From Patescibacteria group bacterium (GTDB lineage Bacteria > Patescibacteriota > Microgenomatia > Levybacterales > UBA12049): a DNA stretch of 48,876 nucleotides. The stretch covers positions 1,035,226 through 1,084,101 of the forward strand of contig BPJB01000001.1 of NCBI GenBank assembly GCA_026004395.1, in the 5' to 3' direction. The position numbers were made by a program, and so were the translations under genes. Positions 23,514 to 48,876 of this stretch are shown here, piece by piece (the first letter of the stretch is position 1; every line of letters starts with the position of its first letter). The notes under the pieces were generated by a model. It saw nothing but the letters and a program-made list of their open reading frames with translations, ran no database searches and was not told where the DNA came from.

Positions 23514-24140
23514 TTAGAGTGTTGGTTGATACTTAATAACTACCTTAGATGATGAAGTAAGTCCATTACTTCGTAACCACGACAATGCTTCTTGCCGATA
23601 GCGCAAAGTGTCTTGGGTAAATGTTGAGCTATCCTTTTTGGCAAAAGTAGTAATAAGTATATAGTCATCACTATCTTTGTACTCTATTACAAATGTTTTT
23701 TGAGGCGACCAATAAGGCAGCTTATCCCAAAAGGGCTCTTTTTTTAATTTCTCAAGATACTCAGGGTTTTGGGTTGGAATAAGAGGGACTTCCTCTGTTT
23801 GCGGTAGATTGCTTTCTGATGGCACTTTAGGAATAAGAGTGAAAGTAATGCGTTGATATTTTTCTGAGAGTTTTATTACTTTTTCCTCAGAAACATATCC
23901 TTCTAAGGAAAGAGTAATTCGAAGTTGTTTTCCGCGTGGAAGATCTTTTAAAGTAAGTGGTGTCTTTGCATCTAGTTTTTTACCATCAAGAGTAACCTCT
24001 GCTCCGGAAGGATTACTTTCGATTAAAATCTGGGATTTCTTCTCAGGCAAAAACAGCAATCCGATAATAATAACACAGACTATTGAGAGGATAACAACGA
24101 ATCCTATACGCAGAAGAAAAACAATATTTGAGTTATTCAT
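23514..24140 (-). CDS. Membrane-anchored PEGA-domain protein
   Basis: N-terminal TM helix, then IESNPSGAEVTLDGKKLDAKTPLTLKDLPRGKQLRITLSLEGY, which matches the PEGA pattern. The start lies 1 nt after the upstream stop (TAATATG). Confidence 0.6.
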   Translation of the reverse strand: MNNSNIVFLLRIGFVVILSIVCVIIIGLLFLPEKKSQILIESNPSGAEVTLDGKKLDAKTPLTLKDLPRGKQLRITLSLEGYVSEEKVIKLSEKYQRITFTLIPKVPSESNLPQTEEVPLIPTQNPEYLEKLKKEPFWDKLPYWSPQKTFVIEYKDSDDYILITTFAKKDSSTFTQDTLRYRQEALSWLRSNGLTSSSKVVIKYQPTL

Positions 24141-24141
24141 A

Positions 24142-25014
24142 TTAATATTCTACACCTTGAAAATATGCCTGCTTTACAGCATTATAAGTGCAGGGAAAAT
24201 CCTTTTTTAAGTTTTTAGATGCACCACGATAATCAGCAATAACCTCCTCTGCAGCAGTCATATAAAAAGCAAGAATTTCTGAGTTATTTTCATTCCAGTT
24301 AGTAAATCCGTAATTACTAACTATCTCACCGCAACTCTCAACTTGACGATAAGCATCGTTTCCACCTAGATATCCAGCCAATCCTCCATTAGGAAGTCCT
24401 CCTGATGCAGAGTGTCCTATTTCATGAGCAAAAAGCCACTCCATTACAAGTTGTGAGGCGGCGTTGTTAATATCATTGGTAATCACAATAAGGCGCGAGT
24501 TTGGTTTTGTTCCATACTGGGGATACACCTGACCAGCATAATATCCCCACGTGCCATCATTGCAAGCAAGAGGATAACAAGTAGCACGAGTTATCTCCAG
24601 AATATAATTTCCAATTGCCAAAGCACGATATGAAGGAGCGGCATATATTCTCTGTACAACATTCCAGAGAGCAGTTAGTTGTTCTTTAGTCCAGCCATTA
24701 GATGGAGGGCTATAGCCGCTTTCTGTAGGACACACTTTATAGTCGTTGCATAATTTGCTTTTCATTTGTTGAACATCTGCAGGTGGCGGCTCTCCTACAT
24801 TTCCACTTCCTACGGTGGGAGAGTTGGTGTTTAGTGTGTTTTCTTTACATCCTAGTTCATCCTCGCTCACCCCTTCTACTGTTCCCACTTTGGTGACACA
24901 ATAACCACTTCGAGCTTCTTGAGCATAAGTTGTTGGCAGAATAAAATGTACCAAGATTATGTTGATTATGACTATCCAAAAATATTTGCAATATTTATTG
25001 AATGAGTATTTCAT
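24142..25014 (-). CDS. Secreted Cys-rich putative zinc metalloprotease (HExxH)
   Basis: Signal peptide ending TTYA/QEA. HEIGH at 24412-24426. About 10 cysteines. A strong GGGAGGA Shine-Dalgarno lies 7 nt upstream of the ATG at 25014, so that start is preferred over 25035. Confidence 0.55.
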   Translation of the reverse strand: MKYSFNKYCKYFWIVIINIILVHFILPTTYAQEARSGYCVTKVGTVEGVSEDELGCKENTLNTNSPTVGSGNVGEPPPADVQQMKSKLCNDYKVCPTESGYSPPSNGWTKEQLTALWNVVQRIYAAPSYRALAIGNYILEITRATCYPLACNDGTWGYYAGQVYPQYGTKPNSRLIVITNDINNAASQLVMEWLFAHEIGHSASGGLPNGGLAGYLGGNDAYRQVESCGEIVSNYGFTNWNENNSEILAFYMTAAEEVIADYRGASKNLKKDFPCTYNAVKQAYFQGVEY

Positions 25015-25027
25015 GAATGAATCCTCC

Positions 25028-25525
25028 CTAATCAAGAATATCCGGAACTTTTAATAAAGGAACTTTTATTTGGTATTCAGTTATAAGTCTTTGTTTATTA
25101 TCAAAAATTTTGATTGTGTACAGCACATCAGGTTTCCAGAACTCAGGCGGATCGGGAAAAATTATAAGACTGTTTGCAGTATCTCCTCTCTGAACTTTCA
25201 GAGGAAGTGGAGGAGATGCAATCACTTTTACATCACTAGGAGTAATGTCTTGGGAAAAAGTCACCTCAATTTTTTGTGAAGGATTTTTAATTGTTTTTCC
25301 TGTAGAATCCTCTTTTGGTGATGTGGTTATTGTTTGAATAGGAGAGCGAGAAGCTGGAAAAGAAGAAAATGAAGATTCTTTTTTGGGTGAAGGAGTGGGG
25401 GATGGAGATTGCTTTTCTCTAGGGTTCGGAAACAAATTCATAACAAGAACAAGAAGAATTATCAAGGTAATAATAGCAAGGATAATAGTGAAAAAAAATA
25501 ATGTTTTTGGGAATTTTAGAATCAT
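25028..25525 (-). CDS. Membrane-anchored protein with a Pro/Ser linker and an Ig-like beta domain
   Basis: N-terminal TM helix, an SPSPTPSPKK linker, and a beta-rich C-terminus resembling bacterial Ig-like domains. Its ATG overlaps the upstream TGA (TGATG), implying translational coupling. Confidence 0.5.
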   Translation of the reverse strand: MILKFPKTLFFFTIILAIITLIILLVLVMNLFPNPREKQSPSPTPSPKKESSFSSFPASRSPIQTITTSPKEDSTGKTIKNPSQKIEVTFSQDITPSDVKVIASPPLPLKVQRGDTANSLIIFPDPPEFWKPDVLYTIKIFDNKQRLITEYQIKVPLLKVPDILD

Positions 25526-28500
25526 CAATTACATTTTACGTACTGATCTGCGTTCCTGCAACCTTGTATTCCGTCAAACCCACATGGACCTCCAATTCCT
25601 ATTTGAAAATGAACATGTGGACCGGAGTTAAAGACTTGAAAAGATCCCGAATATCCAACAACATCTCCAGATTTATAGTATTTATCAACCTCAACTGGAT
25701 TGCTTTTTCTACTGTGATGAAACTGCATCCAAATAGGTTCATCAGTGATATCATCGCTGCAGCTGACAATCTGAATAACCTGATCTGGCTCTTTACCTGT
25801 TTGATTATTATATCCTTTACAGGTGACAGAATGTGCTTCACCATTTATCGAGATTTTAGGAATATAAACAGGCCCATTTAAAGGATTAGTAATATCAATA
25901 GCATAACTTGCAGAATCAACTCCAGCAGCGCAGTAATCACACACTCCTCCATACATGCTACAAACGCTTGCTTGGTAGGATGCAGTGCAATGACATGCAG
26001 GAGCAACTGCGCTTCCCTGCTTTGTACCGCAGGTGATAGGTCCTACTCCAGGGCAAGTGGCATTGGGATTGGGTGGATTAGTTGTTGATGTGGTTTTTTC
26101 TCCTGATTGGGGATTTCCTTGCCCTCCTATAGCTCGAGCTATGGCTCTACTGCTGTAGAAAAGGTCATTTCTGACAAGGGGTAGAATAGTAATCGTAAAT
26201 TCTTGAGGTGCAAAGGTTGATACTGTGCCTGTGTTATCACTCATTGGTATTCCTTTATATTTATCAGCAAGCGCTTTTGCTCTGTTGGAGAATGTTTGCA
26301 TGAACTGTTTATAGTAGGGTGCCCATCCCTCCATTGTGGATCGCCAGTTATCATTTGCTGCTATATCTGATGCAATTTCTCTTGCGAGAGCTATTGCACC
26401 AAGGTCTTTATCCATAAGAAGAATAGCAATTGCTTGTTGAGCAGAGCTGTCTCCACTTTGTGCACGGCTAGCAAGCGTCGTCAAAGCTATTTCCGGAAAG
26501 GATGGGGGGTTGGTAATTTTGCCACCAGAGTCATTGATGACTCTTTGTCCTACTTCTTTCACTTTGGATGGATTAGATGCGCTTCCTTGTCCATATGCAG
26601 CTTCAAAATCCTCGACAATATGTGATGTTGCTTGGGAGACTTGAATACCATATCCTACCTGCCATCCTCCTGAGTAGTACCCTCCTATACACCCTCGATT
26701 GATCTCTTTGTGTGTGTCTTGACAGTTCCAGAAAAAGCGATAACCTCCAATTCCCTCAACAGCGCCTGTCCAGATCACAGAAAGAAAAGGATCAATATAT
26801 TTGGGATCACCATTTTTGACTTTTGTACGCAGATAGCTTTGGTATTTGGCAACTAATGATCCCAGTGTATTCATATCATTCATCTGACTTTCGGAAAAAT
26901 TGATATCAGATGGACCATTGGGAGGTGGAAGATTGTAAGGAGACTGCGTATATTTATTAAAGTTCACAGATGAAGCCTGCGATGTGCTAGGAGTTCCTGT
27001 TAGTTGTCCACTGGATGATCCTGATTGATTGTTGATCATTCCTTGATTTTCTCTTACTGACCAAATAACAGCTGTGACTTTTTCTAAACCATTGGGGAGT
27101 ATCTCTTTTTTTGTTGTATATTTTCCTGATGCACTAATAAAAAGAGCATTTTCAGGTATCGGATCTGTAACAATAATATCCTCTGCCTGACCCTCATATA
27201 CAACGCGAATAGTATAAGTAATTTGTGATTCTTTGATACGCTCTGCTATTTTTTGGAGTTCTTGCTGGTACTTATCAACAGTGTCGCCAACTGCTTTTAG
27301 ACTATCACTAATTGCTTCAAAAAGATTGGTATCCATTGCCGCTAAAACCCTTGCAGATGTTGATGCACCTTGGACAGTTGCACAGTTTCTCCCTCTGCAG
27401 AATGTCTGAGATTCAGGATTGGTTACTTGCTGATCAGTGGTATTTTTAGAAACTTCAGTAAAGCGTCCTTGCATCTCGGTGGTGGATTCGTCTCCACCTA
27501 TTGTTAATAGCAATATCAGCAAAATAAGCAGTATAGCAATAACTATCCAAGTTGCTGGATGAGCTAGCAGAGGAGCAGCTCTTGCTGCAAGTCCTCCAAT
27601 TCTTGCAGCACTGCTTATTCCCAATCTTCCTGCTTGTCCAACTCTTGCTCCTAACATTCTCGTGAGTTGTTTTTGAGGAAGTGGTGGTCTAGAAAATGAT
27701 CGCAGTGGTCTATTAGCAGATCTTGAACGAGAGGGAGAAGAGCTGCGATCATCGGTACTCTTTTCTGCTGATTGTGTTAGGTTTTGGGATCTATTTTCCT
27801 TTTTGTTTGATGAAGAGGATGAAGAGGAAGAAGAATTATCATCTTCATCAGAAGATTCTTCTTCTCCAATCACTTTTTCATTATCAGAAACAAGATTTTC
27901 ACTGGAATCTATACTTATCTTTCTGCTGTCCAAATCAACAGGAGAAGAAGGAGATTGTTTATTTTCTGAAGTTGATGAGATGGTAGTTTGTTTTTTTAAT
28001 AATCCGACCACAAAATTAAGCGCGTTGTCAAATTGAGCATAGGCTGAAGCTTTTTTAGGAAAATGTTCTGCAAAATAGCGGTAATAGGGAAGAATTGCTT
28101 CAATAGTTGCCCGCTGCAGAGGAATAGGAGGAGTAGTGGGTGATCTTTCCCAATCTTCCAAAACACGATTCATTGCTTTATCAACTTCAGCCTTTAGTTT
28201 TTGGAAAATAGGATCACTTTCTGGACTAACTTTTCCTGTTTGGTCTTGATAAATTTTATTTGCCTCTTGATCTTTATATTTCTGAGCAAGCTGCGGGAAT
28301 TGTCTGACGAATAAAGCAAGAGTATCTTTATCAAGCGATGAGGATCCTTTTCCCAATATATAATCTTGACCTTTGACACTGTTGATTGATTCATGGTTTT
28401 CTGCTTCCCAGCGTTTGATTTGTTCTTCCCTAAGTTGTTGATAAGAGGGATCTTGTTTGATTTCCTCACTAAAGGGGATTTCTATATTGAAGTCAGAAAG

Positions 28501-29361
28501 CGGTTGAAATGCTGCCTTTTGGGAAACGAGTATGGAATCTCGTGTAGGAGATGTAATAAAAACAAAGGGTACAAGCTCTGCGTCTATTTGAGTAGAAGGC
28601 AAAATTTGTTTTTCAGGGGTATCCAGCTCAGAATCGTCACCTGTTTGATTGACACCTGTTTTATCAGAAGTAGTATTCGTTCCATCAGCTTGATATGGGG
28701 TGGGTTGATTGTTTTCTGAGGGTGCTTGTTCCGCGTCAGTAAAGGAGGGCATGGTATTGAAAACAACTATTTTAAGAGGAGGCTGGAAATAGCGAAGGTT
28801 TACCACCCTGTGGATAGTTCTATTGTTGAATTTAGTAAGTGCAGGGTGTTGAAACTCGAGAAGATAGCGTTTGAGAAAAAGAGGTTTTGTTCGGAATCTG
28901 CCCTCTGAATTGGTCATCTGTTGATCTATTTCTTTTTTGGTTGGAATGTCTTTTACAATAATTGTTGCTCCAGCCAGAGGAATTTCTTTGTTGTTTTTAT
29001 CTTTTATTACTAGTGATCCAGAGATTGCTTTGAACGATAAGTAAGGAAGAGGTTGTTTTTTATTTTGCTTTTCATCCTGCGATTTTTCTACTTCGTCTTC
29101 AATTTGTTTAAGGATTGCTTCTTGTACATCCTCTTGAGTACTTAATGGACCCAAAAGCCATAAATCCTCAATACGAACAGTTGGAAATTCTTGATGAAAT
29201 TCTTCAAGTGGTTGTTGGTGGTTTTCACAAAATTCTCTCCATTGTTTTTTTGATGAGATAGAAATAAGAAAAGGAAATTTTTCCAAGAGTTCAGACCATG
29301 CTTGAGAGTACTCAAATGCAATCTTGGGATTAACTTTTAGATATTTAAGAGCTTTATCCAT
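25525..29361 (-). CDS. 1278-aa bitopic protein: about 600-aa cytoplasmic N-region, one TM helix, extracellular region ending in an M23 (LytM) peptidase domain. Candidate T4SS cell-wall hydrolase (VirB1/PrgK analog).
   Basis: C-terminus carries AIDI...GDVVGYSGS...GPHVHFQI (HxH at 25609-25617), typical of Peptidase_M23. An Arg-rich segment precedes the TM helix WIVIAILLILLILLLTIGG (about 27490-27560) and an acidic segment follows it. A poly-Ser/acidic tract is present, and an N-terminal CarboxypepD_reg-like beta domain. Confidence 0.65.
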   Translation of the reverse strand: MDKALKYLKVNPKIAFEYSQAWSELLEKFPFLISISSKKQWREFCENHQQPLEEFHQEFPTVRIEDLWLLGPLSTQEDVQEAILKQIEDEVEKSQDEKQNKKQPLPYLSFKAISGSLVIKDKNNKEIPLAGATIIVKDIPTKKEIDQQMTNSEGRFRTKPLFLKRYLLEFQHPALTKFNNRTIHRVVNLRYFQPPLKIVVFNTMPSFTDAEQAPSENNQPTPYQADGTNTTSDKTGVNQTGDDSELDTPEKQILPSTQIDAELVPFVFITSPTRDSILVSQKAAFQPLSDFNIEIPFSEEIKQDPSYQQLREEQIKRWEAENHESINSVKGQDYILGKGSSSLDKDTLALFVRQFPQLAQKYKDQEANKIYQDQTGKVSPESDPIFQKLKAEVDKAMNRVLEDWERSPTTPPIPLQRATIEAILPYYRYFAEHFPKKASAYAQFDNALNFVVGLLKKQTTISSTSENKQSPSSPVDLDSRKISIDSSENLVSDNEKVIGEEESSDEDDNSSSSSSSSSNKKENRSQNLTQSAEKSTDDRSSSPSRSRSANRPLRSFSRPPLPQKQLTRMLGARVGQAGRLGISSAARIGGLAARAAPLLAHPATWIVIAILLILLILLLTIGGDESTTEMQGRFTEVSKNTTDQQVTNPESQTFCRGRNCATVQGASTSARVLAAMDTNLFEAISDSLKAVGDTVDKYQQELQKIAERIKESQITYTIRVVYEGQAEDIIVTDPIPENALFISASGKYTTKKEILPNGLEKVTAVIWSVRENQGMINNQSGSSSGQLTGTPSTSQASSVNFNKYTQSPYNLPPPNGPSDINFSESQMNDMNTLGSLVAKYQSYLRTKVKNGDPKYIDPFLSVIWTGAVEGIGGYRFFWNCQDTHKEINRGCIGGYYSGGWQVGYGIQVSQATSHIVEDFEAAYGQGSASNPSKVKEVGQRVINDSGGKITNPPSFPEIALTTLASRAQSGDSSAQQAIAILLMDKDLGAIALAREIASDIAANDNWRSTMEGWAPYYKQFMQTFSNRAKALADKYKGIPMSDNTGTVSTFAPQEFTITILPLVRNDLFYSSRAIARAIGGQGNPQSGEKTTSTTNPPNPNATCPGVGPITCGTKQGSAVAPACHCTASYQASVCSMYGGVCDYCAAGVDSASYAIDITNPLNGPVYIPKISINGEAHSVTCKGYNNQTGKEPDQVIQIVSCSDDITDEPIWMQFHHSRKSNPVEVDKYYKSGDVVGYSGSFQVFNSGPHVHFQIGIGGPCGFDGIQGCRNADQYVKCN

Positions 29362-29423
29362 GGCAGGGGAAGATAAGAAATATCCTTACTCTTTTCTTAT
29401 ACTAGCAAAAATTAATTAGATTG

Positions 29424-31403
29424 CTAAGAGGAGCCTGGTTGGTTAGTAGTTTGTTGTAGAGATCCTTCTGTTAAAGGAGTAGGAGGAGAAGGCGGTAAGT
29501 TTTCATTAGAAGATGGAGTAGAGGGAATTGAGGAATAAGATGTTGTTAAAGTACCATTAGAATCTTCATTTGTTGGGATTTGGCTGGCTGTTGCATTCTC
29601 TTGAGAAAGATTTTGTTGCTCTCGCTCAATAATTTCTTGGGGATTGGAGGTTATTAACTCATGCTCAAAAGGAGCAGCGAGTACTTTCATCGCAACGTGA
29701 TTTTGACCCGCAAAGAAAAGACCTTCTCCTATATCTGCTGAAAGAAGAAGCTCTCTTTCTCCCTCAGAAAGATAAAAAGTCTCTCCCACTATATCTACTT
29801 CAGCCGTTCCTTGTTTAAGAAGAATTTGAATAGATGAGTTGGTAAGAACAGCTTTTCCATAATCTGTTTTGAGAAAGTCTTCAACATCCTGTGTGGCAGT
29901 TGTTAATCCTAGATAGTATTTGCGTGCGCGTTTGGCAATTGAGTAGACAAATGAGGCAGAATCTTCGTATTTCATCATGTACCAACCCTCATCAAGTATA
30001 AGAAGACGTTTCTTAAGTGATTTCTTAACTTTTGTCCAGACAAAATCAAGGATAATATGCATGGCAACTGGCCGCAGTTCTTCTTCTAAGTTACGGATAG
30101 AGAAGACAGTTAACGGATTGGTAATATCAAAGTTTGAGGGTTGGTTGAAGATTCCAGCAGCACTTCCTTTGATGAATTTTTCAAGTCTGAAGGCGATTTC
30201 TTTTGCTGCTTGTGTTTCCATTCCAAGGAGTGTTTTGTAGAGGTCTTCCAAAAGAGGTGGTTCTTTTTTCTGTGTTTCAGGGTCTGGTGTAATTCCTTTT
30301 TGTCTGTAGGTTTCAACTAGCGCTTTATCCAAAATTGCATCGTGTTCTGCATCAAGTTCTCCGGTAATTAGTTTCAAAAGCCCATGCAAAGAGAGAATTT
30401 TTAACCCAAGTTCATTTTCACCGGGTTCATATAATTGTGAGAGATCAAAAGGATTAATTTTTACGGGCGCTGATGAACTGAATGAGACAATTTCTCCCCC
30501 TAGTGATTTGGTAAGTGTTTCATATTCTCCCTCAGGATCAATCACAATAACTTCTGTTCCTAACATAAACTGTCTCATAATTTCAAGTTTAATAAGATAC
30601 GATTTACCGGAGCCTGATTTTCCTAAGACTACTTCATTCGCATTTTCCAGTGAAAAGCGATCAAAAATAATTAAAGATCCATTCTGTTGGTTGATGCCGT
30701 ACATGACTCCTTTATTTTGTGTGAGAACAGCCGATGTAAACGGGAAGGTAGAGGCAAGAGAGGTCGTATCCATATTGCGTGTTATAAAGAGTTTATCTTG
30801 ACCATAAGGTATAGTTGATTTAAATCCCTCTTCCATCTGCAAAGTTGCGGATTTTGCTGAAATAAGAAGAGATGAGAGTGTGGTTTTTAGCTGCTTTGAA
30901 GCCTCTTCAAGTTCGTTGAGATTATCTGCTGAGAGTGTAAGATAAAAACTAAATTGAAAAAATCTCTCAACTCCCTTGGCAAGCTCTTCTTGAAGAGCGA
31001 GTGCATCTTCAAGTGCTGCTTCTACTCGAGGGTCAGCAGGTCTGCCTTGTTCTGCTTCGGATTCGATTGTTGCCTCCATCTCTGCAATCTTTCTTTTTAG
31101 ATCATCCAAAACATCTGATGCTGATGTTGGGTAACAAAACATAGCGATATCTAGTGTATGGTCAAAATCAATGATTGGCTCAAGCCATCCTGGGGAGACA
31201 AAGCGGGGGTAGCCAACAACAAAAAGTGTGGTAAAGAATTTTTCTCCAACGCGAATGTATTTGAAATCAACTTCAACCGAAGAAGGAGCGATGATATCTA
31301 CAAGCGATACCATTCCTTTCTCAAGATTGGCTATTCCAGGAGTCGGGTGGGTTTTGTGTGTAATTTGAGATTGTTGTGTTTTTTTTCCTCCAAAAAGTTT
31401 CAT
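29424..31403 (-). CDS. virB4: VirB4-family type IV secretion ATPase
   Basis: Walker A GKSGSGKS and Walker B LLILDEGW. The N-domain block VDIIAPSSVEVDFKYIRVGEKFFTTLFVVGYP is typical of VirB4/TraE/PrgJ-like ATPases. S/T/P-rich C-terminal tail. Confidence 0.8.
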   Translation of the reverse strand: MKLFGGKKTQQSQITHKTHPTPGIANLEKGMVSLVDIIAPSSVEVDFKYIRVGEKFFTTLFVVGYPRFVSPGWLEPIIDFDHTLDIAMFCYPTSASDVLDDLKRKIAEMEATIESEAEQGRPADPRVEAALEDALALQEELAKGVERFFQFSFYLTLSADNLNELEEASKQLKTTLSSLLISAKSATLQMEEGFKSTIPYGQDKLFITRNMDTTSLASTFPFTSAVLTQNKGVMYGINQQNGSLIIFDRFSLENANEVVLGKSGSGKSYLIKLEIMRQFMLGTEVIVIDPEGEYETLTKSLGGEIVSFSSSAPVKINPFDLSQLYEPGENELGLKILSLHGLLKLITGELDAEHDAILDKALVETYRQKGITPDPETQKKEPPLLEDLYKTLLGMETQAAKEIAFRLEKFIKGSAAGIFNQPSNFDITNPLTVFSIRNLEEELRPVAMHIILDFVWTKVKKSLKKRLLILDEGWYMMKYEDSASFVYSIAKRARKYYLGLTTATQDVEDFLKTDYGKAVLTNSSIQILLKQGTAEVDIVGETFYLSEGERELLLSADIGEGLFFAGQNHVAMKVLAAPFEHELITSNPQEIIEREQQNLSQENATASQIPTNEDSNGTLTTSYSSIPSTPSSNENLPPSPPTPLTEGSLQQTTNQPGSS

Positions 31404-31406
31404 ACT

Positions 31407-32066
31407 TTACGCTGGTTTGATAATGGGTGTGTTAATATCCATCTCAGCTTGTGAAGCTTGAATGGGTGAATCATTAAAAATATCATAATACAGCTTGATC
31501 AGATCTTCTTTTTCAAGCGTTCTTGATGAAATAGCTAGCTTTGCAAGCTGTGCGTGTAAGGATTCTGCTTTACTAAGAAGTGTTTTTTTGGCTGCTTCAA
31601 CTAAGGCGTATTTTTCAGATTCATTTTTACCAAACGTTTGTTTGACGCCACTTAAACCAGCTTCCAAAGATGAGAAAGGTATAACAATATAGAACGCTTT
31701 ATTAAGAACAACATTGACTCTTACCATCTCTCTTACAAATTCGCGGTAAAGCTTGATGTGTTGGGAAAGAAGCTCGTTTTTGGTCATTCTTTCTGCCTCT
31801 TCAAGGTCTTTTATATAGGAGGAGATATCCATGCGTTTATTGCGGATAATAATTTGAATGGGAAAGGTTAAAGAGTTAAGCAGTGCAGCATAGGCGTAGA
31901 TTCTTGCATCCTGTTCTTTTTTGGAGAGAAGTGTAAAATTGCTAGCGGTGATCTCAATAACCAGCGCTGCGTTCCCACCAGTAAAAATTACTATATTATC
32001 AACAATGTCAACAATCTCTGTAAATTTTTGTGTTGTAGCATGTGTTTTTTGAGCAGGTGACTTCAT
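31407..32066 (-). CDS. Stand-alone protein resembling the VirB4 N-terminal domain
   Basis: Colinear similarity to the first ~200 aa of the adjacent VirB4, for example IVDNIVIFTGGNAALVIEITASNF versus APSSVEVDFKYIRVGEKFFTTLFV. No P-loop. The ATG at 32066 is preferred over the TTG at 32099. Confidence 0.45.
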   Translation of the reverse strand: MKSPAQKTHATTQKFTEIVDIVDNIVIFTGGNAALVIEITASNFTLLSKKEQDARIYAYAALLNSLTFPIQIIIRNKRMDISSYIKDLEEAERMTKNELLSQHIKLYREFVREMVRVNVVLNKAFYIVIPFSSLEAGLSGVKQTFGKNESEKYALVEAAKKTLLSKAESLHAQLAKLAISSRTLEKEDLIKLYYDIFNDSPIQASQAEMDINTPIIKPA

Positions 32067-32117
32067 ACTAAATCTTATCTTTATGCTAAACTCAAGCAAT
32101 CTTTTATTTACAATATT

Positions 32118-34801: not shown

Positions 34802-34814
34802 AGTTTGATAATAC

Positions 34815-34843
34815 TTGATTCAACTGCCTATATCAACTATGAT
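34815..34843 (+). promoter_or_regulatory. Promoter of the 946-aa gene with near-leaderless geometry
   Basis: TTGATT (34815-34820), 17-nt spacer, TATGAT (34838-34843), then 8 nt to the ATG at 34852. Confidence 0.45.
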
Positions 34844-34851
34844 TTTTATAT

Positions 34852-37692: not shown

Positions 37693-37693
37693 T

Positions 37694-39613: not shown

Positions 39614-39615
39614 GA

Positions 39616-40365: not shown

Positions 40366-40402
40366 AGAACGCAACTACTCACTACTTTCTATACGCTATC
40401 TT

Positions 40403-42685
40403 CTAGCCTGAAAACCCAGGAATGTTAAGGATGTCAACACCGATCACCTCAAGAATAACAAGAGAGAAAATCAAAAAGAGTAAGCCAATAATTGCGGAGG
40501 TGATTCGATCCTTTGCCTCTGTTATTTTCTCAGGATTACCTTGTGATGTCATCAGTTGATAACCTGATCTGATGATAAGCAGTAAAACAATACCTCCTGA
40601 TATACTCAAGAGCACACGCAGGAGATCTTTGATGAACTTGCCTGGTTCAGATGAAAATGCTCCAAATGGTGTGATAACACCAGCACATTTAACTATTTTT
40701 TTTTGATTTTCTTTACGAGCGTTGAGATCCGAGGTAAAATCAGGACTTTTAGGATCAGCTAGATTTCTAGGCTCCCGAATTGGATTGCCATTTGCATCAA
40801 GATCCTCTGCATAATATCCATATAAACAAGGTGGAGCATCGCCTGAAATATATCCACATGCACTGCCTACGCAAATTACAAGAATTCTTAAAGGTTGATC
40901 TATCGTGTCGCCAATAATCCACGTAGCGATTTGTTTACCTACTAAAACGCCTCCTACCGCGCCACCAATTACTGTTGCACCTAAAGAAAATGGACCGGTA
41001 CCCATACCCAAAAGGGCCCCCCCCGCTCCAAATGCGCTTTCCAATAGTAATGATCCATGTTTTTCAGTCCAGCTCAGTTCTTCTTGTGCTCTCATAAGTG
41101 TAACTGTATAAATTCCATCCATTAATTTTGGAAGAGGAGGTGAGCTAATTACTTTTTCAGCACTTTCTGGAACAAAGCTTGTAATAATATATTGTGCATT
41201 TTTATCTAGGTTATCTATATTTTTCAGACATCTTTCATTGTTTATTTTTTCTTGTCCTTTAAACATCCCATTGCGTTCTTCATCTGAGATAACAATGTAG
41301 TAGCAAATATCATCAGCATTATTAAGATGTGTTAATTTAATTGACCATTCTTTACCTACCTCAATTGGATTAGTAAGTAAAATTATATCCTCTAAGTTTC
41401 CACCAATCTGATTTACTGTTATTGTTACTGGATTTGAAAAAACATCCTCATTAGGAGAACATTTGGCCCTAAGAATAAATTTTTTATTTTTATCATTCTC
41501 ATCAAATGGATTTATTGTGACATCTCTCCCGGGAGTTATATCTATAATTCTTAGTTGATAATCTTTGGTCACGAGCTCATTATTTTCATTATAGAAAATA
41601 ATTTTTGCATTTTGAGTTTCTGGCGGGCATCCATCAACCCTGACTATTATAGGGTTTTTTTCATAAAAAATATCACCACCATTCTCTGGTTTAACGGTGA
41701 GAATAATACCTTCACCTCTTACATCCATTGATTTTGTAAGCGGTTCAAAAGCATTGTTGTCACTATTTACGGTGAATTGATATGTATCAAGGTATAGTTC
41801 AGCAGATTGGGGACCAGCCCTTGCTATGAGTGGTGGTCTTCTAATTGCATCAGGTTTAAGGACAATTTTTAGAGATGCATTAAAATAATTGCCTTCAACT
41901 GCTGTACAATTAACTGATGGAAAGATTTTTTCCACAGTATCATCTCTATCTTTTAACTCACAACTTGCATTATTGTTGACCACAAGTTTAAATTTTTTTG
42001 AAAAAGATTTATCATCCTTTTTAATTTCTTTCCTCTTAACATTTATAGAGTATGATCCAACAGGTAAGCCGTTAATAGTCATTGTTGGCTCTGAAAGCCA
42101 GGGAGCTTCAGAAGGAAGAACAAGAGAACTTTGTATTCTAGGATTGATAATATTAAATGAAAATGGTTGATAAGTTTTTGATCCATCCGTACTTATAACT
42201 CCGACCCAAAATTGTTGTGGTAGTTGGTCTATGTTTATTCGTGATGAATTAATATAAGCAGTTACATGTATGTACCCTGTTTTATTATCGATTGTCTGTA
42301 TGCTGCATGTAGGTTTTTTGCCGTCATTTGTCATAAAGATAGAATCATGTCCGCTTTGATCTGAAATGATGCAATAACCATTATTAATATCCATTGTAAG
42401 CGACAGCGTTTGAAAAGCTTGTTTTAAATTTTCTGTCCTTGATATTTTTAAATAAAGACTTAAATTTTGAGTGTTCCCGTCAATAAGGGGAATATTCGCA
42501 TAAGTGAATGCACCAGTTTCTCCGTATTCCAATTCTCCGTCCTCTAAACCATTGAATGGATAGACCTGGATAGTTCGCTGTTGAGCATGTGCTGTATTAG
42601 GTGCAAAAAAAATTGTAAAAATTATAAAAAGGAAAAAAAGAAAAACTTTTCGATTTTGTAGCAAAAAATGCTTCAACCAGGACAT
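40403..42685 (-). CDS. Large secreted beta-rich protein with a Gly-zipper segment and a C-terminal VirB2-like pilin module
   Basis: Signal peptide ending TAHA/QQ, followed by about 550 aa of beta-rich sequence. A Gly-rich segment GAGGALLGMGTGPFSLGATVIGGAVGGVLVG follows. The last ~80 aa (LLRVLLSISGGIVLLLIIRSGYQLMTSQGNPEKITEAKDRITSAIIGLLFLIFSLVILEVIG) are colinear with the small pilins. The ATG at 42685 is preferred over the TTG at 42703. Confidence 0.65.
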   Translation of the reverse strand: MSWLKHFLLQNRKVFLFFLFIIFTIFFAPNTAHAQQRTIQVYPFNGLEDGELEYGETGAFTYANIPLIDGNTQNLSLYLKISRTENLKQAFQTLSLTMDINNGYCIISDQSGHDSIFMTNDGKKPTCSIQTIDNKTGYIHVTAYINSSRINIDQLPQQFWVGVISTDGSKTYQPFSFNIINPRIQSSLVLPSEAPWLSEPTMTINGLPVGSYSINVKRKEIKKDDKSFSKKFKLVVNNNASCELKDRDDTVEKIFPSVNCTAVEGNYFNASLKIVLKPDAIRRPPLIARAGPQSAELYLDTYQFTVNSDNNAFEPLTKSMDVRGEGIILTVKPENGGDIFYEKNPIIVRVDGCPPETQNAKIIFYNENNELVTKDYQLRIIDITPGRDVTINPFDENDKNKKFILRAKCSPNEDVFSNPVTITVNQIGGNLEDIILLTNPIEVGKEWSIKLTHLNNADDICYYIVISDEERNGMFKGQEKINNERCLKNIDNLDKNAQYIITSFVPESAEKVISSPPLPKLMDGIYTVTLMRAQEELSWTEKHGSLLLESAFGAGGALLGMGTGPFSLGATVIGGAVGGVLVGKQIATWIIGDTIDQPLRILVICVGSACGYISGDAPPCLYGYYAEDLDANGNPIREPRNLADPKSPDFTSDLNARKENQKKIVKCAGVITPFGAFSSEPGKFIKDLLRVLLSISGGIVLLLIIRSGYQLMTSQGNPEKITEAKDRITSAIIGLLFLIFSLVILEVIGVDILNIPGFSG

Positions 42686-42756
42686 AATTTTATCGTAGCG
42701 CAATGCAACTTGTTATGCAATTAAATAAAATGGTGTTTTTGATGTACAATAACTTT

Positions 42757-44091
42757 ATGATAATAAATACAAAGCATTTCGAATCTTTATATCCTGCTGA
42801 TACGAGGGAGAGGGAGCTTTCGGAGATAGTTACATTGATCAGAGAAGGCAATTCCTGCCAGATTATTGGTATTCCGGGAGTAGGAAGATCAAGCCTTTTG
42901 GGACTACTTTCCTACAACAGAGACGTTCGCCTTAAGCACTTTCCTACCAAACATGGGTTTGTCCATTTTGTCATGGTCAATTTCTCAGAAGTGAGGAAAA
43001 GACCTTTATTTGATGTGATGAAGCTTATCTTTCTTAATCTGACTCAGTCTCTGAGGGAGAGAAGCATGGTAGAGGAATATGAAGTAGTTGATAAATTATT
43101 TAAAGATGCTCTAGCGTACAATGATGAGCTAGTGCTCACTCAGGGCATAAAAAATGCTGTTGATTATCTCTCGCTGGAGAAAAAATTCACATTAATATTC
43201 CTTTTTGATAGGTTTGATGAGTACGTGCCAGCACTCACTTCTCAGTTTTTTACCAATCTTCGTTCTCTAAGAGATCGTGCCAAGTATCGTTTTTCCTGTA
43301 TCTTTTCTCTCACGCGTCCTCTGGAGGATACAATTGAGCCGCTTCTTTTTGCTGATTTCAGCGATTTTGTAACAGGACATTTTGTGTATCTGTCCTTGTA
43401 TGATAAGCCTAGCGTTGATTTCCGATTTGATTACTTGGAAAAAATCACAGGCAAGCATCTTGCTAATACTGTTAGAGGAAAGATAGTAGATCTTACAGGG
43501 GGCCATATCCGCTTAAGCAAACTTGCAGCCGAGTCTCTCTTGGCGCAAGAGGTAGCACCTGATAATATCGAAGAATTTCTTCTTAGCCAAAGAACAATTC
43601 AAAGTGCGCTTCTGACTATCTGGCAAAGTCTTTCTCCTTTTGATCAGCAAATACTCAAAACACGATCTTTTTTTTCAAAAGATACAGATGATCTGCAGTA
43701 TCTAATAAAAGTAGGATTAATAGCAGATGGCAAGATTGCAATTCCTCTTCTTGAGAAGTATATCCAGTTCTCAGATTACTTATTGCAAGATGAGAAAATA
43801 ATTTACGATTCTTTGACCAATACTATCCATAAAGGAGAGAGTGTATTGTCAGATTATCTCACCAAATCAGAGTTTCGTCTCTTGCGGCACCTTCTGCAAA
43901 ATCCAGAGAGAGTAATTGAGAGAGAGGAAATTGTCTCAGTAGTCTGGCAGGATGCCAAATCAACAGCAGGTGTAAGTGAGCAGGCTATAGATCAGCTTAT
44001 CTTTAGACTACGAAGAAAAGTTGAGGTTGATCCTAACAATCCAAAGCATATTTTGACTGTGAAAGGGAGAGGAATTCGTTTTCAAGCATAA
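42757..44091 (+). CDS. Transcriptional regulator: P-loop NTPase-like N-domain plus C-terminal OmpR/PhoB-type winged helix
   Basis: Walker-A-like GIPGVGRS (42868-42891, Arg in place of Lys) and Walker-B-like LIFLFDRFDE. C-terminus SEFRLLRHLLQNPERVIEREEIVSVVW...AIDQLIFRLRRKV...ILTVKGRGIRF matches Trans_reg_C. A TACAAT lies exactly 6 nt upstream of the ATG at 42757. Confidence 0.7.
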   Translation: MIINTKHFESLYPADTRERELSEIVTLIREGNSCQIIGIPGVGRSSLLGLLSYNRDVRLKHFPTKHGFVHFVMVNFSEVRKRPLFDVMKLIFLNLTQSLRERSMVEEYEVVDKLFKDALAYNDELVLTQGIKNAVDYLSLEKKFTLIFLFDRFDEYVPALTSQFFTNLRSLRDRAKYRFSCIFSLTRPLEDTIEPLLFADFSDFVTGHFVYLSLYDKPSVDFRFDYLEKITGKHLANTVRGKIVDLTGGHIRLSKLAAESLLAQEVAPDNIEEFLLSQRTIQSALLTIWQSLSPFDQQILKTRSFFSKDTDDLQYLIKVGLIADGKIAIPLLEKYIQFSDYLLQDEKIIYDSLTNTIHKGESVLSDYLTKSEFRLLRHLLQNPERVIEREEIVSVVWQDAKSTAGVSEQAIDQLIFRLRRKVEVDPNNPKHILTVKGRGIRFQA

Positions 44092-44405: not shown

Positions 44406-44491
44406 TAACTTACCTGCTATGTAATCAACCTAAAAGATTTTTATAAGCTTTTTCTCAAGTTAAATTGTTCTCTTCCTCCTATACTGCAGGC

Positions 44492-47035
44492 ATGAAAGAG
44501 CGTAATTTAGGACAATTAAATCAAGAAAAATTGACAGGACAAGGGTCAAATATCTATGCTAATAGTGGAGAAAAATCTATGCCTGATGAAAAACGAGTAG
44601 AACCGCCAGAAACAGCGATTATAAATACTCCTCTAAGTGAAACTCCAGATGAGGGTGGAAGACGCGTAGAATCAGTAAGAGAACCAATAACTGTTAGAGA
44701 GGGAATACTTCCCCAAACATCAGAAATTATTGGTGAAGGTGAAAACTATGAACTACCTCCTCTTACCCCAAAACAACAAACATTAATGGCTGAGTATAAG
44801 CGTCGTCATCCTAATGCTTCAGAGGAGCAGATTTTAGAAGCAGAGAAATTGATAAGAGGCGGTATTAATCCTCTTTCCGAAGAGCAAGAGCGACGTTTTG
44901 AAGGTATACCGCAAAATTTTAATGAACTCATAGAGGAAATTATGAAAAATTCTGATCCTAAATGGAGCAGAGGTGGCGAATACAGTCTTGTTAAGACAGT
45001 AAAAGACGAAAAGACGGGAAAAGACAAAGAAATAATTGATCAAGCAAATTTCCTAAGATGGGTGAGAGATAGAATGCTTTATTTTCATAATGAGTCTCCA
45101 GATGAGCAGTTTAGTCTTTTTGCCAAAGTCCGTCTCCAAAGAGAAGTTCGTGATATCTCCATAGGAGAAATGATAGAGTATGAGGATCGCTATTTTCGTG
45201 ATAAAGATAGAAATCAGTACAAAGAACTGGTTGATCAACTGCGAAAAGAACTTTGGCAGTTCTCCATGTTTCGTCTTAATGATTTGAAATATAAAGCTGT
45301 AATGGGTAGTGATACAGAACTGCCCAAAGCTATTCAAGAAATGTTTTATTATAACTTCGCTACCAAGACAGTGTGGGGTGGTAAGAGTGCTCTTGCTTGG
45401 GTTTTGACAATGCCTGATGCTTTCACTTCAAATCCTATTACTGAAGAACATCGAAAGGCAAGAACTACTCCTGAACAACCAGAGCTAGATACAGCAACAG
45501 GTCAGGCTCTCAATACAGCTTTTTTGACGTATTATTATATCTCAGATATAGATATGTTGAGAGTTATTCTAGGAGAGGATGCGCCTCTTCTTGATAAAGA
45601 AGAGATTAAAAAAATAATTAGACAACGAGCAGCCAAAAAATTTGGTGAGACTGATGAGGGAGCAAAGGCATTAATTCAAGATAGAGACGGATTAGTAGCC
45701 AAGCTTTTTGATAAAACTGAAGAGTTTAATGAAGAAGATCTTCGTGATTTTATTAATATCTTTAATTCTCCTGAAAAGCATACTGAGATTATTGGAGTAG
45801 TAAATGATTTGATTGCCTTATCTATCAAGAAAAAATACTCCAAGAGTAATATTAATATTGAGGAGATGAATATTGAATATGCACGAACATTTGCAGGATT
45901 CATGGCGCGTATGTTTGGCGCAGGTTATAGAAATGATTTGAAAGCAAATGCCAATGATGCAGGAGCAAAACCCGGCAATCTCATGCGCTACCGTCTAAAG
46001 CAGGTTGAAGAAGGAAGACGTGGAGGAGCATTTGGAACTCCATATAACGTGTATTTTCTTAAAGAACTGATGGTTGATTTTCTTTCAGGATCGCGTACAG
46101 AGTCTCTAGTGTTAAGTGATGATGGAACATATTTTGTTGATAGTCAAGGTAAAAAGCACTATTACACCCCTTTAGAAGTAATGTTGGAGATGGAAAAAAT
46201 GCTGGATGATCCTGATTTTAAGTCAACAAAAATTCATGAACTTGCGAAACGTCTTCTTTTTCCAGACAATACCATGCGTCAGTATGCAGGAAATCATGTC
46301 ATCAGAGCATTCTCGATGTTTACTGATATTACTGAAGCGACAGAAATTAACTGGAGTAAGTTTATTACTTATGATCCATTTGGAAGAGTTGTTTTCAACC
46401 GAAAGGAGTTTGAGACTGAGGTCAAAGAGAATTTTTTTAAGAAGATGCGCTATGCGTGGTCAACATATGGACAGCTTGATTTTAGTAAATCTGTAAGAAC
46501 ACAAGTAGAAAAGGTAGTAAATGGGAAAAAGGTCAGCACATGGGAATGGCAGCCTCTGGCAAGTAGAATGTTTGGATATGAGATCTTGAATACTCCTGAA
46601 TTTTGGGCAACAGATGAAAAAGGAAGAGTACTCTATGATGAAAATGGCAATCACCTTATAGATTATTTCAAGGTCAATGCAGATAAGACCAAGCTCTGGA
46701 AGAGAGTTGCATTAGCACGTATAGCTGCTGAACTTTATTCGCATCGTAATCTATATTCAACAGATCCTCGTTATAATTTTTTCTTTTATGAACAGGTTAT
46801 TGAAGCTCTAAGAAGTATTCCCTCAGAGATTGTTGGCGATGAGTTTGATTTGAGAAGCGTTAAGACAGGAGGCCAGTTTTTTAGCGATGAGGATCTGGAA
46901 TGGCTGAGAAAGCATTCCTCAACTACCTGGTGGGAGTTATATCGAGGAGCACTTATTAGTGATGTCTTTCAAGGAAGTATTAAAGGATATAGAAAAGCAA
47001 TTAGCCTTTTTCTAAGAATGATTATTGAGCAGTAA
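44492..47035 (+). CDS. Large soluble hypothetical protein (847 aa from the ATG at 44492)
   Basis: Long uninterrupted ORF with no TM helix, no signal peptide and no recognised motif. A TATACT (44480-44485) lies exactly 6 nt before the ATG. Confidence 0.55.
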   Translation: MKERNLGQLNQEKLTGQGSNIYANSGEKSMPDEKRVEPPETAIINTPLSETPDEGGRRVESVREPITVREGILPQTSEIIGEGENYELPPLTPKQQTLMAEYKRRHPNASEEQILEAEKLIRGGINPLSEEQERRFEGIPQNFNELIEEIMKNSDPKWSRGGEYSLVKTVKDEKTGKDKEIIDQANFLRWVRDRMLYFHNESPDEQFSLFAKVRLQREVRDISIGEMIEYEDRYFRDKDRNQYKELVDQLRKELWQFSMFRLNDLKYKAVMGSDTELPKAIQEMFYYNFATKTVWGGKSALAWVLTMPDAFTSNPITEEHRKARTTPEQPELDTATGQALNTAFLTYYYISDIDMLRVILGEDAPLLDKEEIKKIIRQRAAKKFGETDEGAKALIQDRDGLVAKLFDKTEEFNEEDLRDFINIFNSPEKHTEIIGVVNDLIALSIKKKYSKSNINIEEMNIEYARTFAGFMARMFGAGYRNDLKANANDAGAKPGNLMRYRLKQVEEGRRGGAFGTPYNVYFLKELMVDFLSGSRTESLVLSDDGTYFVDSQGKKHYYTPLEVMLEMEKMLDDPDFKSTKIHELAKRLLFPDNTMRQYAGNHVIRAFSMFTDITEATEINWSKFITYDPFGRVVFNRKEFETEVKENFFKKMRYAWSTYGQLDFSKSVRTQVEKVVNGKKVSTWEWQPLASRMFGYEILNTPEFWATDEKGRVLYDENGNHLIDYFKVNADKTKLWKRVALARIAAELYSHRNLYSTDPRYNFFFYEQVIEALRSIPSEIVGDEFDLRSVKTGGQFFSDEDLEWLRKHSSTTWWELYRGALISDVFQGSIKGYRKAISLFLRMIIEQ

Positions 47036-47143
47036 AGTAACTAAAGTTTTAAAAGACATTTTATCTTATTTTTATTTATAGAAATAGATTTTATTTTCAA
47101 CCTATAAATTGATCTATGATTCTCAGATTCTTGATATCAGTTA

Positions 47144-48876
47144 CTAAGATTCGGTGTCTGGTGTCTGGATGGGCCGAGGATGAACTAGATTTCGCCTTGC
47201 TAGATCATCGAAGTTTTGTCTTCCCCTATAAAGGAAATTCATTGGCGTTATTCTGTTAAGACGTATTTTCTGTCCTATTCGTGTATTTCTAACTTTATCA
47301 AAGGCTTTTAATCCAGTAGCTGCTAGGAATCCTGCTTCTCCTCTTCGTGTATCAAGCCTCAAGGATCGAGAGATCACCCCTGCAATAGGAGGCATTGTGA
47401 CTGCCGCTCCTCTACCAAAACCTTTATAAATTGCAGGTGTTACATATTTGTTGGGTTGAGTCTTCAGAGCATCTCTAAGTAGATGAAGAATCTCAGGTGT
47501 GACAAAGATTATCCCAACAGCAATGAGATTGCCGAAGTTGTCAAGAGCATTGGGATTGGCAAGAAGAGGCGGGATAAAAGTGTTGGCAGAAGGGTTGTTG
47601 AGCCCTTCCTGGACATAAATCACCCTTGCAGCCACAATCATGGCAACAGCAGCAGGGAAGACCAGAAGGTGCGCTGCCATAAAGCGGAGCCACGATGTAA
47701 AACCAAGTGAATTACCAGGCAAAAGTCCTGCACCAATCCATAAAGGAGCAGAGATGGCACCAATAATTACATAAATAAATGCTCTAAGCAACAAAAACCA
47801 AAGTCTGAAAAGAGCAATAATTATAGCAGCAAGAACAATGATAATTGTCAACATACTTATTAACCATTTCACTGCACCAAAAAAACCAGCCTTTGCACAA
47901 TCCATCACAGTGTCGAGTTTAGGAATTATTGTTTGAATACCAAAAACTTTATGGTATGATTGATTACATTTCATGTCTTTATCCTCGTTCCAACCTAAAA
48001 GCGCTATGATACCTCGTGAAAGTACATCTCCTATGCTTCCTGCTACATTCACTGAAATTCCCATAAATCCATCAACTGATCCTAAACAACCAGTTGCATT
48101 ACCAAAAAGCTCACTGGTGTAATTAATAGGATTATTTAGCAGATTTTTTGTTGCTATAAAATCTACTTTTTGGGGAACACCCTCTGCATTTTTTTTAGGT
48201 TCTCCTATACACGGTAGATTACCGCTTGTAAGAGTATTTATACCACCATATGTTGCAAGCCACATGCCGTCAATTAAAAGTCCGGCAATTGGATAGGAAA
48301 ATGTGATGAGGATGATAGTGACTATGATCTTGGGTAGTTGATTTTGGATAGACATTACTGTGCGTGGATCTATCTTTACCCTTAGCATAATACCAATTCC
48401 AATCAGTATAAAAATGATAATCAGGAAAATATAAGTAATATCGCGTATTCTTATCCACAAATCTCTAATCGCCTCAAGAGCAGTAAATCCAGATCCCGGA
48501 TCAGTCTGTGCATGTGTCTCTCTGACAACTCCAAAGTTTGATGCCAAATACTCAAGATAACTGGTACTGCTTAGTGGCTGTCTAAAAAGATAGGCAATAG
48601 CGCTGGTGGAAAAGCCGACAACACCTCCTATCTGAGGATTTTGGGGATCTATCTTGTAGGAGCGTAACTCTCCTGTTTGCGGATCAGGTATCAGACAGGT
48701 ATGGTAGGGATTAAGCACATCAAGTCCTGTGAGCTGGCAGATAAGTGCAGCTGAGATCTCAATAAGCTTTATTTGAGCTTTAGTACTATCTATAGTTAAG
48801 GGTGCTGCTGATGGATAAGTATTATTAGGATAGGGATCTACTCCCTGCGCAAAAGCATGAGATGCACTAAGACTAT
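47144..48876 (-). CDS. Polytopic membrane protein, VirB6/TrbL-like candidate. The 5' end lies beyond the window.
   Basis: At least 6 hydrophobic helices. My manual translation shows the frame stays open upstream of the GTG at 48718 to the window edge (...SLSASHAFAQGVDPYPNNTYPSAAPL...). That stretch looks like the end of a signal peptide, so the gene is truncated by the window. Confidence 0.5.
   Translation of the reverse strand, partial: SLSASHAFAQGVDPYPNNTYPSAAPLTIDSTKAQIKLIEISAALICQLTGLDVLNPYHTCLIPDPQTGELRSYKIDPQNPQIGGVVGFSTSAIAYLFRQPLSSTSYLEYLASNFGVVRETHAQTDPGSGFTALEAIRDLWIRIRDITYIFLIIIFILIGIGIMLRVKIDPRTVMSIQNQLPKIIVTIILITFSYPIAGLLIDGMWLATYGGINTLTSGNLPCIGEPKKNAEGVPQKVDFIATKNLLNNPINYTSELFGNATGCLGSVDGFMGISVNVAGSIGDVLSRGIIALLGWNEDKDMKCNQSYHKVFGIQTIIPKLDTVMDCAKAGFFGAVKWLISMLTIIIVLAAIIIALFRLWFLLLRAFIYVIIGAISAPLWIGAGLLPGNSLGFTSWLRFMAAHLLVFPAAVAMIVAARVIYVQEGLNNPSANTFIPPLLANPNALDNFGNLIAVGIIFVTPEILHLLRDALKTQPNKYVTPAIYKGFGRGAAVTMPPIAGVISRSLRLDTRRGEAGFLAATGLKAFDKVRNTRIGQKIRLNRITPMNFLYRGRQNFDDLARRNLVHPRPIQTPDTES

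Follow-up and report, generated by a model that had tools for sequence, protein, structure and literature searches.

A 48,876-nucleotide stretch of a Patescibacteria group bacterium genome (assembly GCA_026004395.1, contig BPJB01000001.1, positions 1,035,226 to 1,084,101; hereafter the window) carries a type IV secretion system (T4SS) locus beside its replication origin region. With a probability of about 0.8, this locus is a T4SS of the Patescibacteria type that is native to a Candidatus Levybacteria (Microgenomates) genome and fixed in its chromosome, is a counterpart of the SEML1_0005-0019 cluster of the saccharibacterium Candidatus Southlakia epibionticum ML1 (Wang et al., 2023, Cell, PMC10633639), and serves contact-dependent exchange and not conjugation. 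The reading builds on what the parts are, on their fixed synteny in related genomes, a neighbourhood free of DNA-transfer genes in the sequence searched, and the hypervariable ectodomain of one of the pilins.

The ATPase identifies the type of the machine. VirB4 scores 389 bits against NF045971, the model of the CD1110 family VirB4-like conjugal transfer ATPase (cut-off 325, E 3.6e-116), and matches P-loop_TraG at 5.4e-26. Its best solved structure is 4ag5, the Gram-positive-type VirB4 of Thermoanaerobacter (3.2e-45), and R388 TrwK is matched at 1.9e-5. Judged by its sequence, the protein would be placed inside the published Patescibacteria clade of VirB4. The neighbouring TrsD-like protein aligns with positions 90-285 of the 894 in NF045975, the VirB4 model of Mycoplasma integrated conjugative elements (ICEs), at E 3e-11, while VirB4 itself covers positions 292-893; the TrsD model NF041427 is matched weakly (E 0.017), over its full length. 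Pairwise BLASTP and hhalign comparisons of the TrsD-like protein with the N-terminus of the window VirB4 give no signal, and the relation between the two proteins is visible through the Mycoplasma model alone. Beside them, the PrgI/VirB3-like protein exceeds the PF12666 cut-off (30 bits against 27, E 7.6e-7) and also matches CarboxypepD_reg (6.6e-5).

A 1278-aa membrane-anchored protein is the candidate VirB1-type cell-wall hydrolase, to judge from its C-terminal 180 residues. These match the M23 peptidase of PDB 5kqb (5.6e-5) and fall below the Pfam M23 threshold (17 bits, cut-off 28.7). The HxH motif (PHVHF) and the Asp are kept, and the first His of HxxxD has become Ser (SYAIDI); the domain may be an inactive or atypical hydrolase. 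It is also cysteine-rich.

Pilin modules above the gathering score of PF18895, T4SS_pilin (E 4e-8 to 8e-10), are found in each of four small proteins and at the C-terminus of a large fusion protein (residues 687-754, 3.9e-8), and one of the small proteins, pil140, also exceeds the threshold of the TrbC/VirB2 family PF04956 (1.9e-6). The modules have the build of VirB2/TrbC pilins, with a leader, two hydrophobic helices (two transmembrane segments each) and a short polar loop, and they share the loop motif GGIKWITS.GD..K. All five further match NF045849, the NCBIfam model of the 'Mbov_0395 pilin-like conjugal transfer protein' of Mycoplasma ICEs, at E 1e-5 to 3e-7, below its cut-off. The adjacent pil140 and pil146 are 71% identical; 200 nt of their genes (38631-38830 and 39042-39241) are identical at 94% and their N-terminal parts differ, a pattern that suggests that the pilin domain alone was recently duplicated or underwent gene conversion.

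The channel subunit is harder to recognise. The VirB6-like protein has a signal peptide and at least five transmembrane helices, yields no Pfam match in its window copy, and gives nothing when its family profile is searched against PDB sequences. Of the 333 homologues in the family, 36 were sampled and 10 of these match TrbL/VirB6 PF04610 (best 5.6e-8); the assignment therefore comes through family members and not through the window copy. The top PDB matches of its AlphaFold2 (AF2) model (predicted local distance difference test, pLDDT, 76) in Foldseek are chains of R388 TrwI/VirB6, but these matches are statistically weak (probability 0.92, E 0.21). This VirB6 family mostly escapes standard hidden Markov models (HMMs).

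Much of this layout had been proposed in an initial annotation, made from the sequence and its open reading frames (ORFs). The proteins that it placed in a first minus-strand block (VirB3/PrgI-like, a VirB4 N-domain protein, VirB4, a membrane-anchored M23 protein, and Ig, HExxH and PEGA proteins) are all present where it put them, the M48 and Ig-type matches being weak and the Pfam M23 score below threshold. Its second block, four small pilins and a 766-aa fusion, is borne out in full, and HMM searches uphold the T4SS family membership of the small pilins, PrgI/VirB3 and the VirB6 family, the point on which it had invited refutation. The VirB6-like identity of its third block also stands, through PF04610 matches in the family and weak structural matches to TrwI. 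The extent given for that gene does not: the window end cuts it, and the complete gene, read from the overlapping public contig L001, encodes 599 aa and ends at the equivalent of position 48943.

Fixed synteny marks the locus as native. A VirB4 search with one genome per species confirmed 242 relatives, and the comparisons here use the best 80, in which VirB4 is 69-88% identical. Those with informative labels are mostly Candidatus Levybacteria/Levyibacteriota (Microgenomates) or Patescibacteria; many labels are uninformative or look wrong. Many of the closest loci, L003, L006 and L042 for example, lie in third-party-annotated bins labelled 'uncultured Gammaproteobacteria', Sulfotelmatobacter or Methylomirabilota, yet carry this Levybacteria-type locus with VirB4 identities of 74-88%. 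Among loci long enough on the relevant side (at least 8 kb for dnaN/dnaA), virB4 is followed downstream by dnaN and dnaA in 53 of 53, with a gap of 0.3-6.1 kb; TrsD and PrgI precede virB4 in 51 of 51, pilins are found in 45 of 51, and a regulator with a P-loop and a winged helix-turn-helix (wHTH) in 31 of 51. These counts indicate that the T4SS locus is a fixed, native part of these chromosomes and not an island. Pilin arrays of one to seven ORFs occur in 57 of the 80 loci, as well as in the window. The genes between dnaN and virB4, and a trio encoding proteins of 442, 946 and 120 aa, differ from species to species.

The window itself is chromosomal DNA of about 37% GC, and the T4SS locus has the same GC content as its flanks. 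It starts four bases past dnaN in a classical origin region, in which rpmH-rnpA-yidD-yidC-jag (minus strand) face dnaA-dnaN (plus strand) and the cumulative GC skew reaches its minimum at about 20-22 kb. DnaA matches Bac_DnaA in Pfam (2.7e-64); dnaN is called from its translation and from matches of 51-70% identity beside dnaA in related loci, not from a Pfam scan.

DNA-transfer genes were sought on both sides of the window's right end. HMM searches find no family match to a relaxase, type IV coupling protein (T4CP), VirB11 or integrase among window ORFs of at least 100 aa, as the initial annotation had stated. Its suggestion to extend the sequence rightward, where such genes would have made the locus an ordinary ICE, came out negative: L001, identical to the window at 100% over 9.1 kb, adds 5.2 kb whose called genes include none of the four, and none occurs in the 10-kb right flank of the close relative L082. 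No att-like direct repeats flanking the locus were found. Across the 48.9 kb of the window, the 5.2-kb extension and the L082 flank, the mating-pair-formation genes are thus linked neither to a relaxase or T4CP nor to integration and excision functions, as they would be in a conjugative T4SS or ICE.

The closest published system is the origin-proximal T4SS cluster of S. epibionticum, which resembles Gram-positive conjugative T4SSs and, unusually, has essential pilins and no coupling protein or relaxase. Most genes of the cluster are essential, and transposon sequencing shows the T4SS to be essential for epibiotic growth (Wang et al., 2023). Both loci are chromosomal and origin-proximal, contain no relaxase or coupling protein, and share the core order PEGA protein, hydrolase, large protein, VirB4, TrsD-like protein and PrgI. 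The S. epibionticum cluster further contains VirB6 and six PF18895 pilins; here, VirB6 and a pilin array likewise belong to the cluster. PEGA corresponds in position to SEML1_0005 and the 1278-aa protein to SEML1_0006/0007; an Hsp20 gene lies nearby in both, after the pilin array in S. epibionticum and to the right of VirB6 in the Levybacteria genome. The loci differ in class (here Levybacteria/Microgenomates), in their hydrolase (M23-like against lysozyme-like) and in VirB6, which lies beyond the pilins and has 599 aa, against 1088 aa in S. epibionticum; no NTF2/VirB8-like gene was recognised in the window. The 760-aa pilin fusion, the P-loop and wHTH regulator and an 856-aa orphan were not found in the accessible description of the S. 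epibionticum cluster. Genetic evidence supports the S. epibionticum T4SS, whereas the Levybacteria locus is known here from sequence alone.

A broad survey describes the same kind of system. Quinonero-Coronel et al. (2025, Microb Genom, PMC12102498) report T4SSs in 2,417 of 3,035 Patescibacteria genomes, with TrsD, PrgI, VirB6, 441 pilin arrays, rare relaxases, proximity to dnaA/dnaN, and M23 or LysM hydrolases that replace VirB1; the arrays contain 2-11 VirB2-like pilin genes and are frequent in Microgenomatia. An MPF_FATA-type VirB4, TrsD, PrgI/VirB3, no relaxase and a position near dnaA/dnaN/rnpA are common to that catalogue and the window. With TrsD/PrgI adjacent to an MPF_FATA VirB4, a pilin array, VirB6, neither relaxase nor T4CP, and dnaA/dnaN alongside, the locus has the composition of a Patescibacteria-clade T4SS. 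The survey gives VirB6 as scarce in Microgenomatia and VirB3 as rarely linked to virB4, whereas here PrgI adjoins trsD and virB4 in every locus scored and a divergent VirB6 family is present. The identity of pil140 and pil146 likewise exceeds the 54% within-array maximum given there. The link of the pilins to the Mycoplasma ICE model was not found in the accessible text of PMC12102498, nor were the fast divergence of the pilin-fusion ectodomain and of the 856-aa protein and the HMM escape of VirB6 in that of either paper. The pilin fusion, the 856-aa protein, the VirB6/PrgI linkage, the Mycoplasma link and the recent pilin duplication seem to be additional to what these sources contain.

More distant relatives sharpen the contrast. 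Gram-positive MPF_FATA conjugative T4SSs (pCF10 Prg, pGO1 Trs, the C. difficile CTn2 CD1110 family) share with the locus VirB4, PrgI and TrsD homologues, a membrane-anchored cell-wall hydrolase and the lack of outer-membrane core genes. They are carried by mobile elements and encode a relaxase, a coupling protein and surface adhesins but no VirB2 pilins; on each of these points the window locus is the reverse. Mycoplasma ICEs, with the pilin-like Mbov_0395 and the VirB4 Mbov_0397, are related through their models: besides the pilin matches, the TrsD-like protein and VirB4 jointly cover positions 90-893 of the Mbov_0397 model, below its curated cut-off. Those ICEs are mobile, DNA-transferring elements with a VirD4 homologue, whereas no VirD4 occurs in the DNA searched here. 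The statement in the initial annotation that monoderm T4SSs normally lack VirB2 pilins is right in that pilins are unusual here and too absolute otherwise, given the Mycoplasma pilin-like model and the VirB2-like pilins of archaeal MPF_FATA-related systems (PMC9905601). A recent FEMS review treats Patescibacteria T4SSs as the one monoderm exception with VirB2, and speculates that they are a conduit for uptake or signalling (FEMS review 2025, PMC12857230).

From established knowledge of T4SSs, these parts should assemble into a VirB4-driven membrane complex. A VirB4 hexamer would sit at the membrane with PrgI/VirB3, the TrsD-like protein and the divergent VirB6 as channel subunit, while peptidoglycan would be remodelled by the membrane-anchored M23-like protein and possibly by the HExxH protein as well. 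VirB4 would pull the VirB2-like pilins from the membrane for polymerisation into a pilus or short conduit, their expression being under the control of the P-loop and wHTH protein. On this filament the large pilin fusion might act as an adhesin that displays a fast-evolving ectodomain as a host-specific contact module. Since relaxase and coupling protein are missing from the locus, the system would be used for contact-dependent exchange with a host cell and not for conjugation, its substrate being exported protein or host material taken up and not DNA. The initial annotation had likewise argued for a contact apparatus in an epibiont of the candidate phyla radiation; that reading is supported and agrees with both published accounts, and the attachment, uptake or effector-delivery functions that it listed are inferred in the literature as they are here.

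The pilin fusion stands out for the fast evolution of its ectodomain. Between it and its counterpart in the close relative L082, which has 582 aa against 766 aa in the window, identity is 88% in the pilin domain and 26% over about 230 aa of the ectodomain. The N-terminal 680 residues have no homologue except themselves in 5.8 billion protein clusters and none in the 80 related loci. Of the 58 sources of pilin ORFs, 13 related loci and the window have fusions of 353-760 aa, in which the pilin domain follows more than 250 residues. The ectodomain is hypervariable, and a conserved pilin domain joined to a divergent ectodomain is the pattern expected of an exposed recognition module. A more far-reaching proposal, which is tentative and rather unlikely in its entirety, would have the fusion set the host range of a monoderm that builds a true VirB2-type pilus, its ectodomain replaced or diversified between close Levybacteria, and the 856-aa protein a translocated effector. 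In that proposal the match of all pilin modules to the Mycoplasma ICE model would imply that the monoderm MPF_FATA lineage had pilin-like subunits ancestrally and did not borrow them from diderm systems.

Several observations weigh against a contact-dependent T4SS of this kind. Essentiality is established for a saccharibacterium only, not for Levybacteria. A T4CP could sit elsewhere in the roughly 1.08-Mb genome, given that VirD4 homologues lie far from virB4 in many of the genomes surveyed in PMC12102498. No VirB8-like protein was identified, one zinc ligand of the M23-like domain is missing, and a search of the pilin profile against PDB sequences returns spurious helical matches alone and no solved pilin. 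To date, no Patescibacteria T4SS has been seen to form a pilus; PMC12857230 offers it only as a possibility.

This last point feeds the strongest of the competing explanations, that the pilins build no extended pilus and instead serve as short subunits of a channel through membrane and cell wall, as may hold in wall-less Mycoplasma ICEs, host contact being left to type IV pili and other adhesins. The matches of all five modules to NF045849, the unreported filament and the demonstrated role of type IV pili as the adhesion organelle in Saccharibacteria (PMC12102498) all speak for it. They are set against multiple diversified pilin paralogues, five modules above the pilin family threshold, and a hypervariable ectodomain of about 650 aa on one pilin, which fits a surface-exposed structure under diversifying selection; a purely short channel is improbable, if worth keeping in view. 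Less likely still is a DNA-uptake machine like archaeal Ced or Helicobacter pylori ComB, which would bring in DNA of the host either to supply nucleotides or for transformation. In its favour, these bacteria are unable to synthesise nucleotides (PMC10633639), Ced uses VirB2-like pilins (PMC9905601), VirB6 has a ComF-like gene about 5 kb to its right, and VirB4 matches the CedB model at 2e-17, a match far weaker than those to the conjugative VirB4 models. Transformation of S. epibionticum depends on comEC, whose deletion is viable whereas the T4SS is essential (PMC12857230), so ComEC-coupled uptake does not explain that essentiality. An ICE or ICE remnant with its DNA-processing genes outside the window is largely refuted and effectively excluded: a conjugal-transfer ATPase model scores VirB4 above cut-off, tRNA genes lie just right of VirB6 and T4CP genes may be distant from virB4 (PMC12102498), but the locus stands between dnaN and housekeeping genes at one place in all 53 relatives long enough to show it, the window and the 5.2-kb (L001) and 10-kb (L082) right flanks contain no integrase, relaxase or T4CP, no flanking direct repeats were found, the base composition is that of the flanks, and the first tRNA-Ser is on the plus strand, its 3' end pointing away from the T4SS locus.

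Table 1. Features of the T4SS locus and its left border (window coordinates; the TrsD-like, PrgI/VirB3-like and other assignments are discussed in the text).
Feature	Position	Strand	Basis or remarks
dnaA + dnaN	20728-23510	+	Replication origin region; conserved left border of T4SS locus
PEGA protein, membrane-anchored, 208 aa	23514-24140	-	PEGA 5.1e-12; N-terminal transmembrane helix
Secreted HExxH protein, 297 aa	24142-25035	-	Motif FAHEIGH read in translation; signal-peptide-like N-terminus
Membrane-anchored 166-aa protein, possibly Ig-like	25028-25528	-	N-terminal transmembrane helix; Big_5 E 0.0025, below threshold
1278-aa bitopic protein, C-terminal M23-like domain	25525-29361	-	Transmembrane helix at residues 603-621; PDB 5kqb
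VirB4 ATPase, monoderm (MPF_FATA) type, 659 aa	29424-31403	-	NF045971 (CD1110 family) above curated cut-off
TrsD-like protein, 230 aa	31407-32099	-	Related to N-terminal extension of long VirB4 proteins
PrgI/VirB3-like membrane protein	32118-33335	-	PF12666; coiled-coil and C-terminal beta-sandwich extension
Variable slot	33473-38056	mixed	Tail-anchored 442-aa (-), soluble 946-aa (+) and 120-aa (+) proteins
Four small VirB2-like pilin genes	38173-38496, 38567-38989, 38993-39433, 39616-39960	-	PF18895 2e-8 to 8e-10
Four-helix-bundle (23S rRNA IVP/Avd-like) gene	40045-40374	-	PF05635 3.1e-23; TIGR02436 7.6e-21
Pilin fusion, 760-766 aa	40403-42703	-	Signal peptide, ~650-aa ectodomain, C-terminal VirB2-like pilin domain
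P-loop NTPase + OmpR/PhoB-type winged-helix regulator	42703-44091	+	Trans_reg_C 3.4e-18; AAA_16 weak
orf856, 856-aa soluble, signal-less protein	44465-47035	+	Large uncharacterised family; syntenic with VirB6
Divergent VirB6/TrbL-like polytopic membrane protein	47144-48876 (window end cuts gene)	-	PF04610 matches in family members; weak Foldseek matches to TrwI/VirB6

The plus-strand regulator and large orphan proteins that the initial annotation saw between the blocks are present, the 946-aa and 856-aa proteins without domain matches (Table 1). The regulator gene diverges from the pilin fusion gene and its product is 87% identical in L082. The two start codons lie at most about 17 bp apart (42685-42703), and in longest-ORF calls the genes share base 42703; at that spacing the promoters must sit inside each other's coding regions. 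Elsewhere in the window, at 8517-9824 on the minus strand, a paralogous P-loop protein with an OmpR-type wHTH is 27% identical to the regulator over its full length (E 1e-30); its Walker A motif is degenerate, and it adjoins a 452-aa ORF without a family match.

An exhaustive search puts at least 352 representatives in the family of orf856, and the profile of that family matches nothing in Pfam or PDB. The structure prediction and Foldseek search proposed for such orphans gained nothing, the AF2 model being poor (pLDDT 52.8) and its matches meaningless (probability at most 0.10). The protein is 24% identical in L082, where the neighbouring genes are 77-90% identical. The 442-, 946- and 120-aa proteins of the variable slot have no Pfam or NCBIfam match, and homologues occur at the same position in just 3-8 of the 80 loci. 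The HExxH protein, with a weak M48 match (E 0.087), has a detected homologue in only one of the 80.

The four-helix-bundle gene within the pilin block, which 7 of the 80 related loci have and which L004 carries in the same slot, is probably not part of the T4SS machine. It matches the Avd model of diversity-generating retroelements weakly (E 0.0018). Such a retroelement, which an Avd-like gene in the pilin block brings to mind, was rejected: neither a reverse transcriptase nor a template/variable repeat pair lies nearby.

The core operon (23514-33335) runs toward the putative origin (20400-20730), opposite to dnaA/dnaN, and the same orientation holds in 12 of 12 related loci whose gene order was inspected. 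Transcription in this direction would be head-on to replication, an uncommon arrangement for genes presumed essential and strongly expressed. Right of VirB6, L001 carries a tRNA-Ser gene, a gene for a 206-aa membrane protein, GIY-YIG, NUDIX, HSP20, GDT1, VIT1 and ComF-like genes and more tRNAs, and the right flank of L082 is the same. Four tRNA-Ser genes (tga, cga, gga, gct) and one tRNA-Arg gene lie at 9309-13921 of L001 (about 49.1-53.7 kb in window coordinates). The left 23 kb of the window contain housekeeping genes, among them those for a P-type ATPase, RuvCAB, L25, leucyl-tRNA synthetase and PGK. The synthetase (6281-8383, minus strand) has just 700 aa, and a 40-residue fragment alone matches its editing domain, which may be reduced. 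An Rfam scan of the window gave no matches.

The observation behind the initial annotation is real and correctly read, but it is already the published view (PMC10633639, PMC12102498); the locus is a Levybacteria copy of a known system with a few unreported details, and it leaves the existing picture of the Patescibacteria T4SS unchanged. As a Levybacteria example it is clean and complete, and its borders are defined by dnaN on the left and by VirB6 with tRNA-Ser on the right. The system matters in that few machines are known to be essential to the epibiotic way of life of this very large, mostly uncultured group, and the Patescibacteria T4SS is among them. Three leads follow from the details: surveys with standard profiles under-count the VirB6 family in Microgenomates, the fast-evolving cytoplasmic family of orf856 is a candidate substrate, and the hypervariable ectodomain of the pilin fusion is a candidate host-recognition module.

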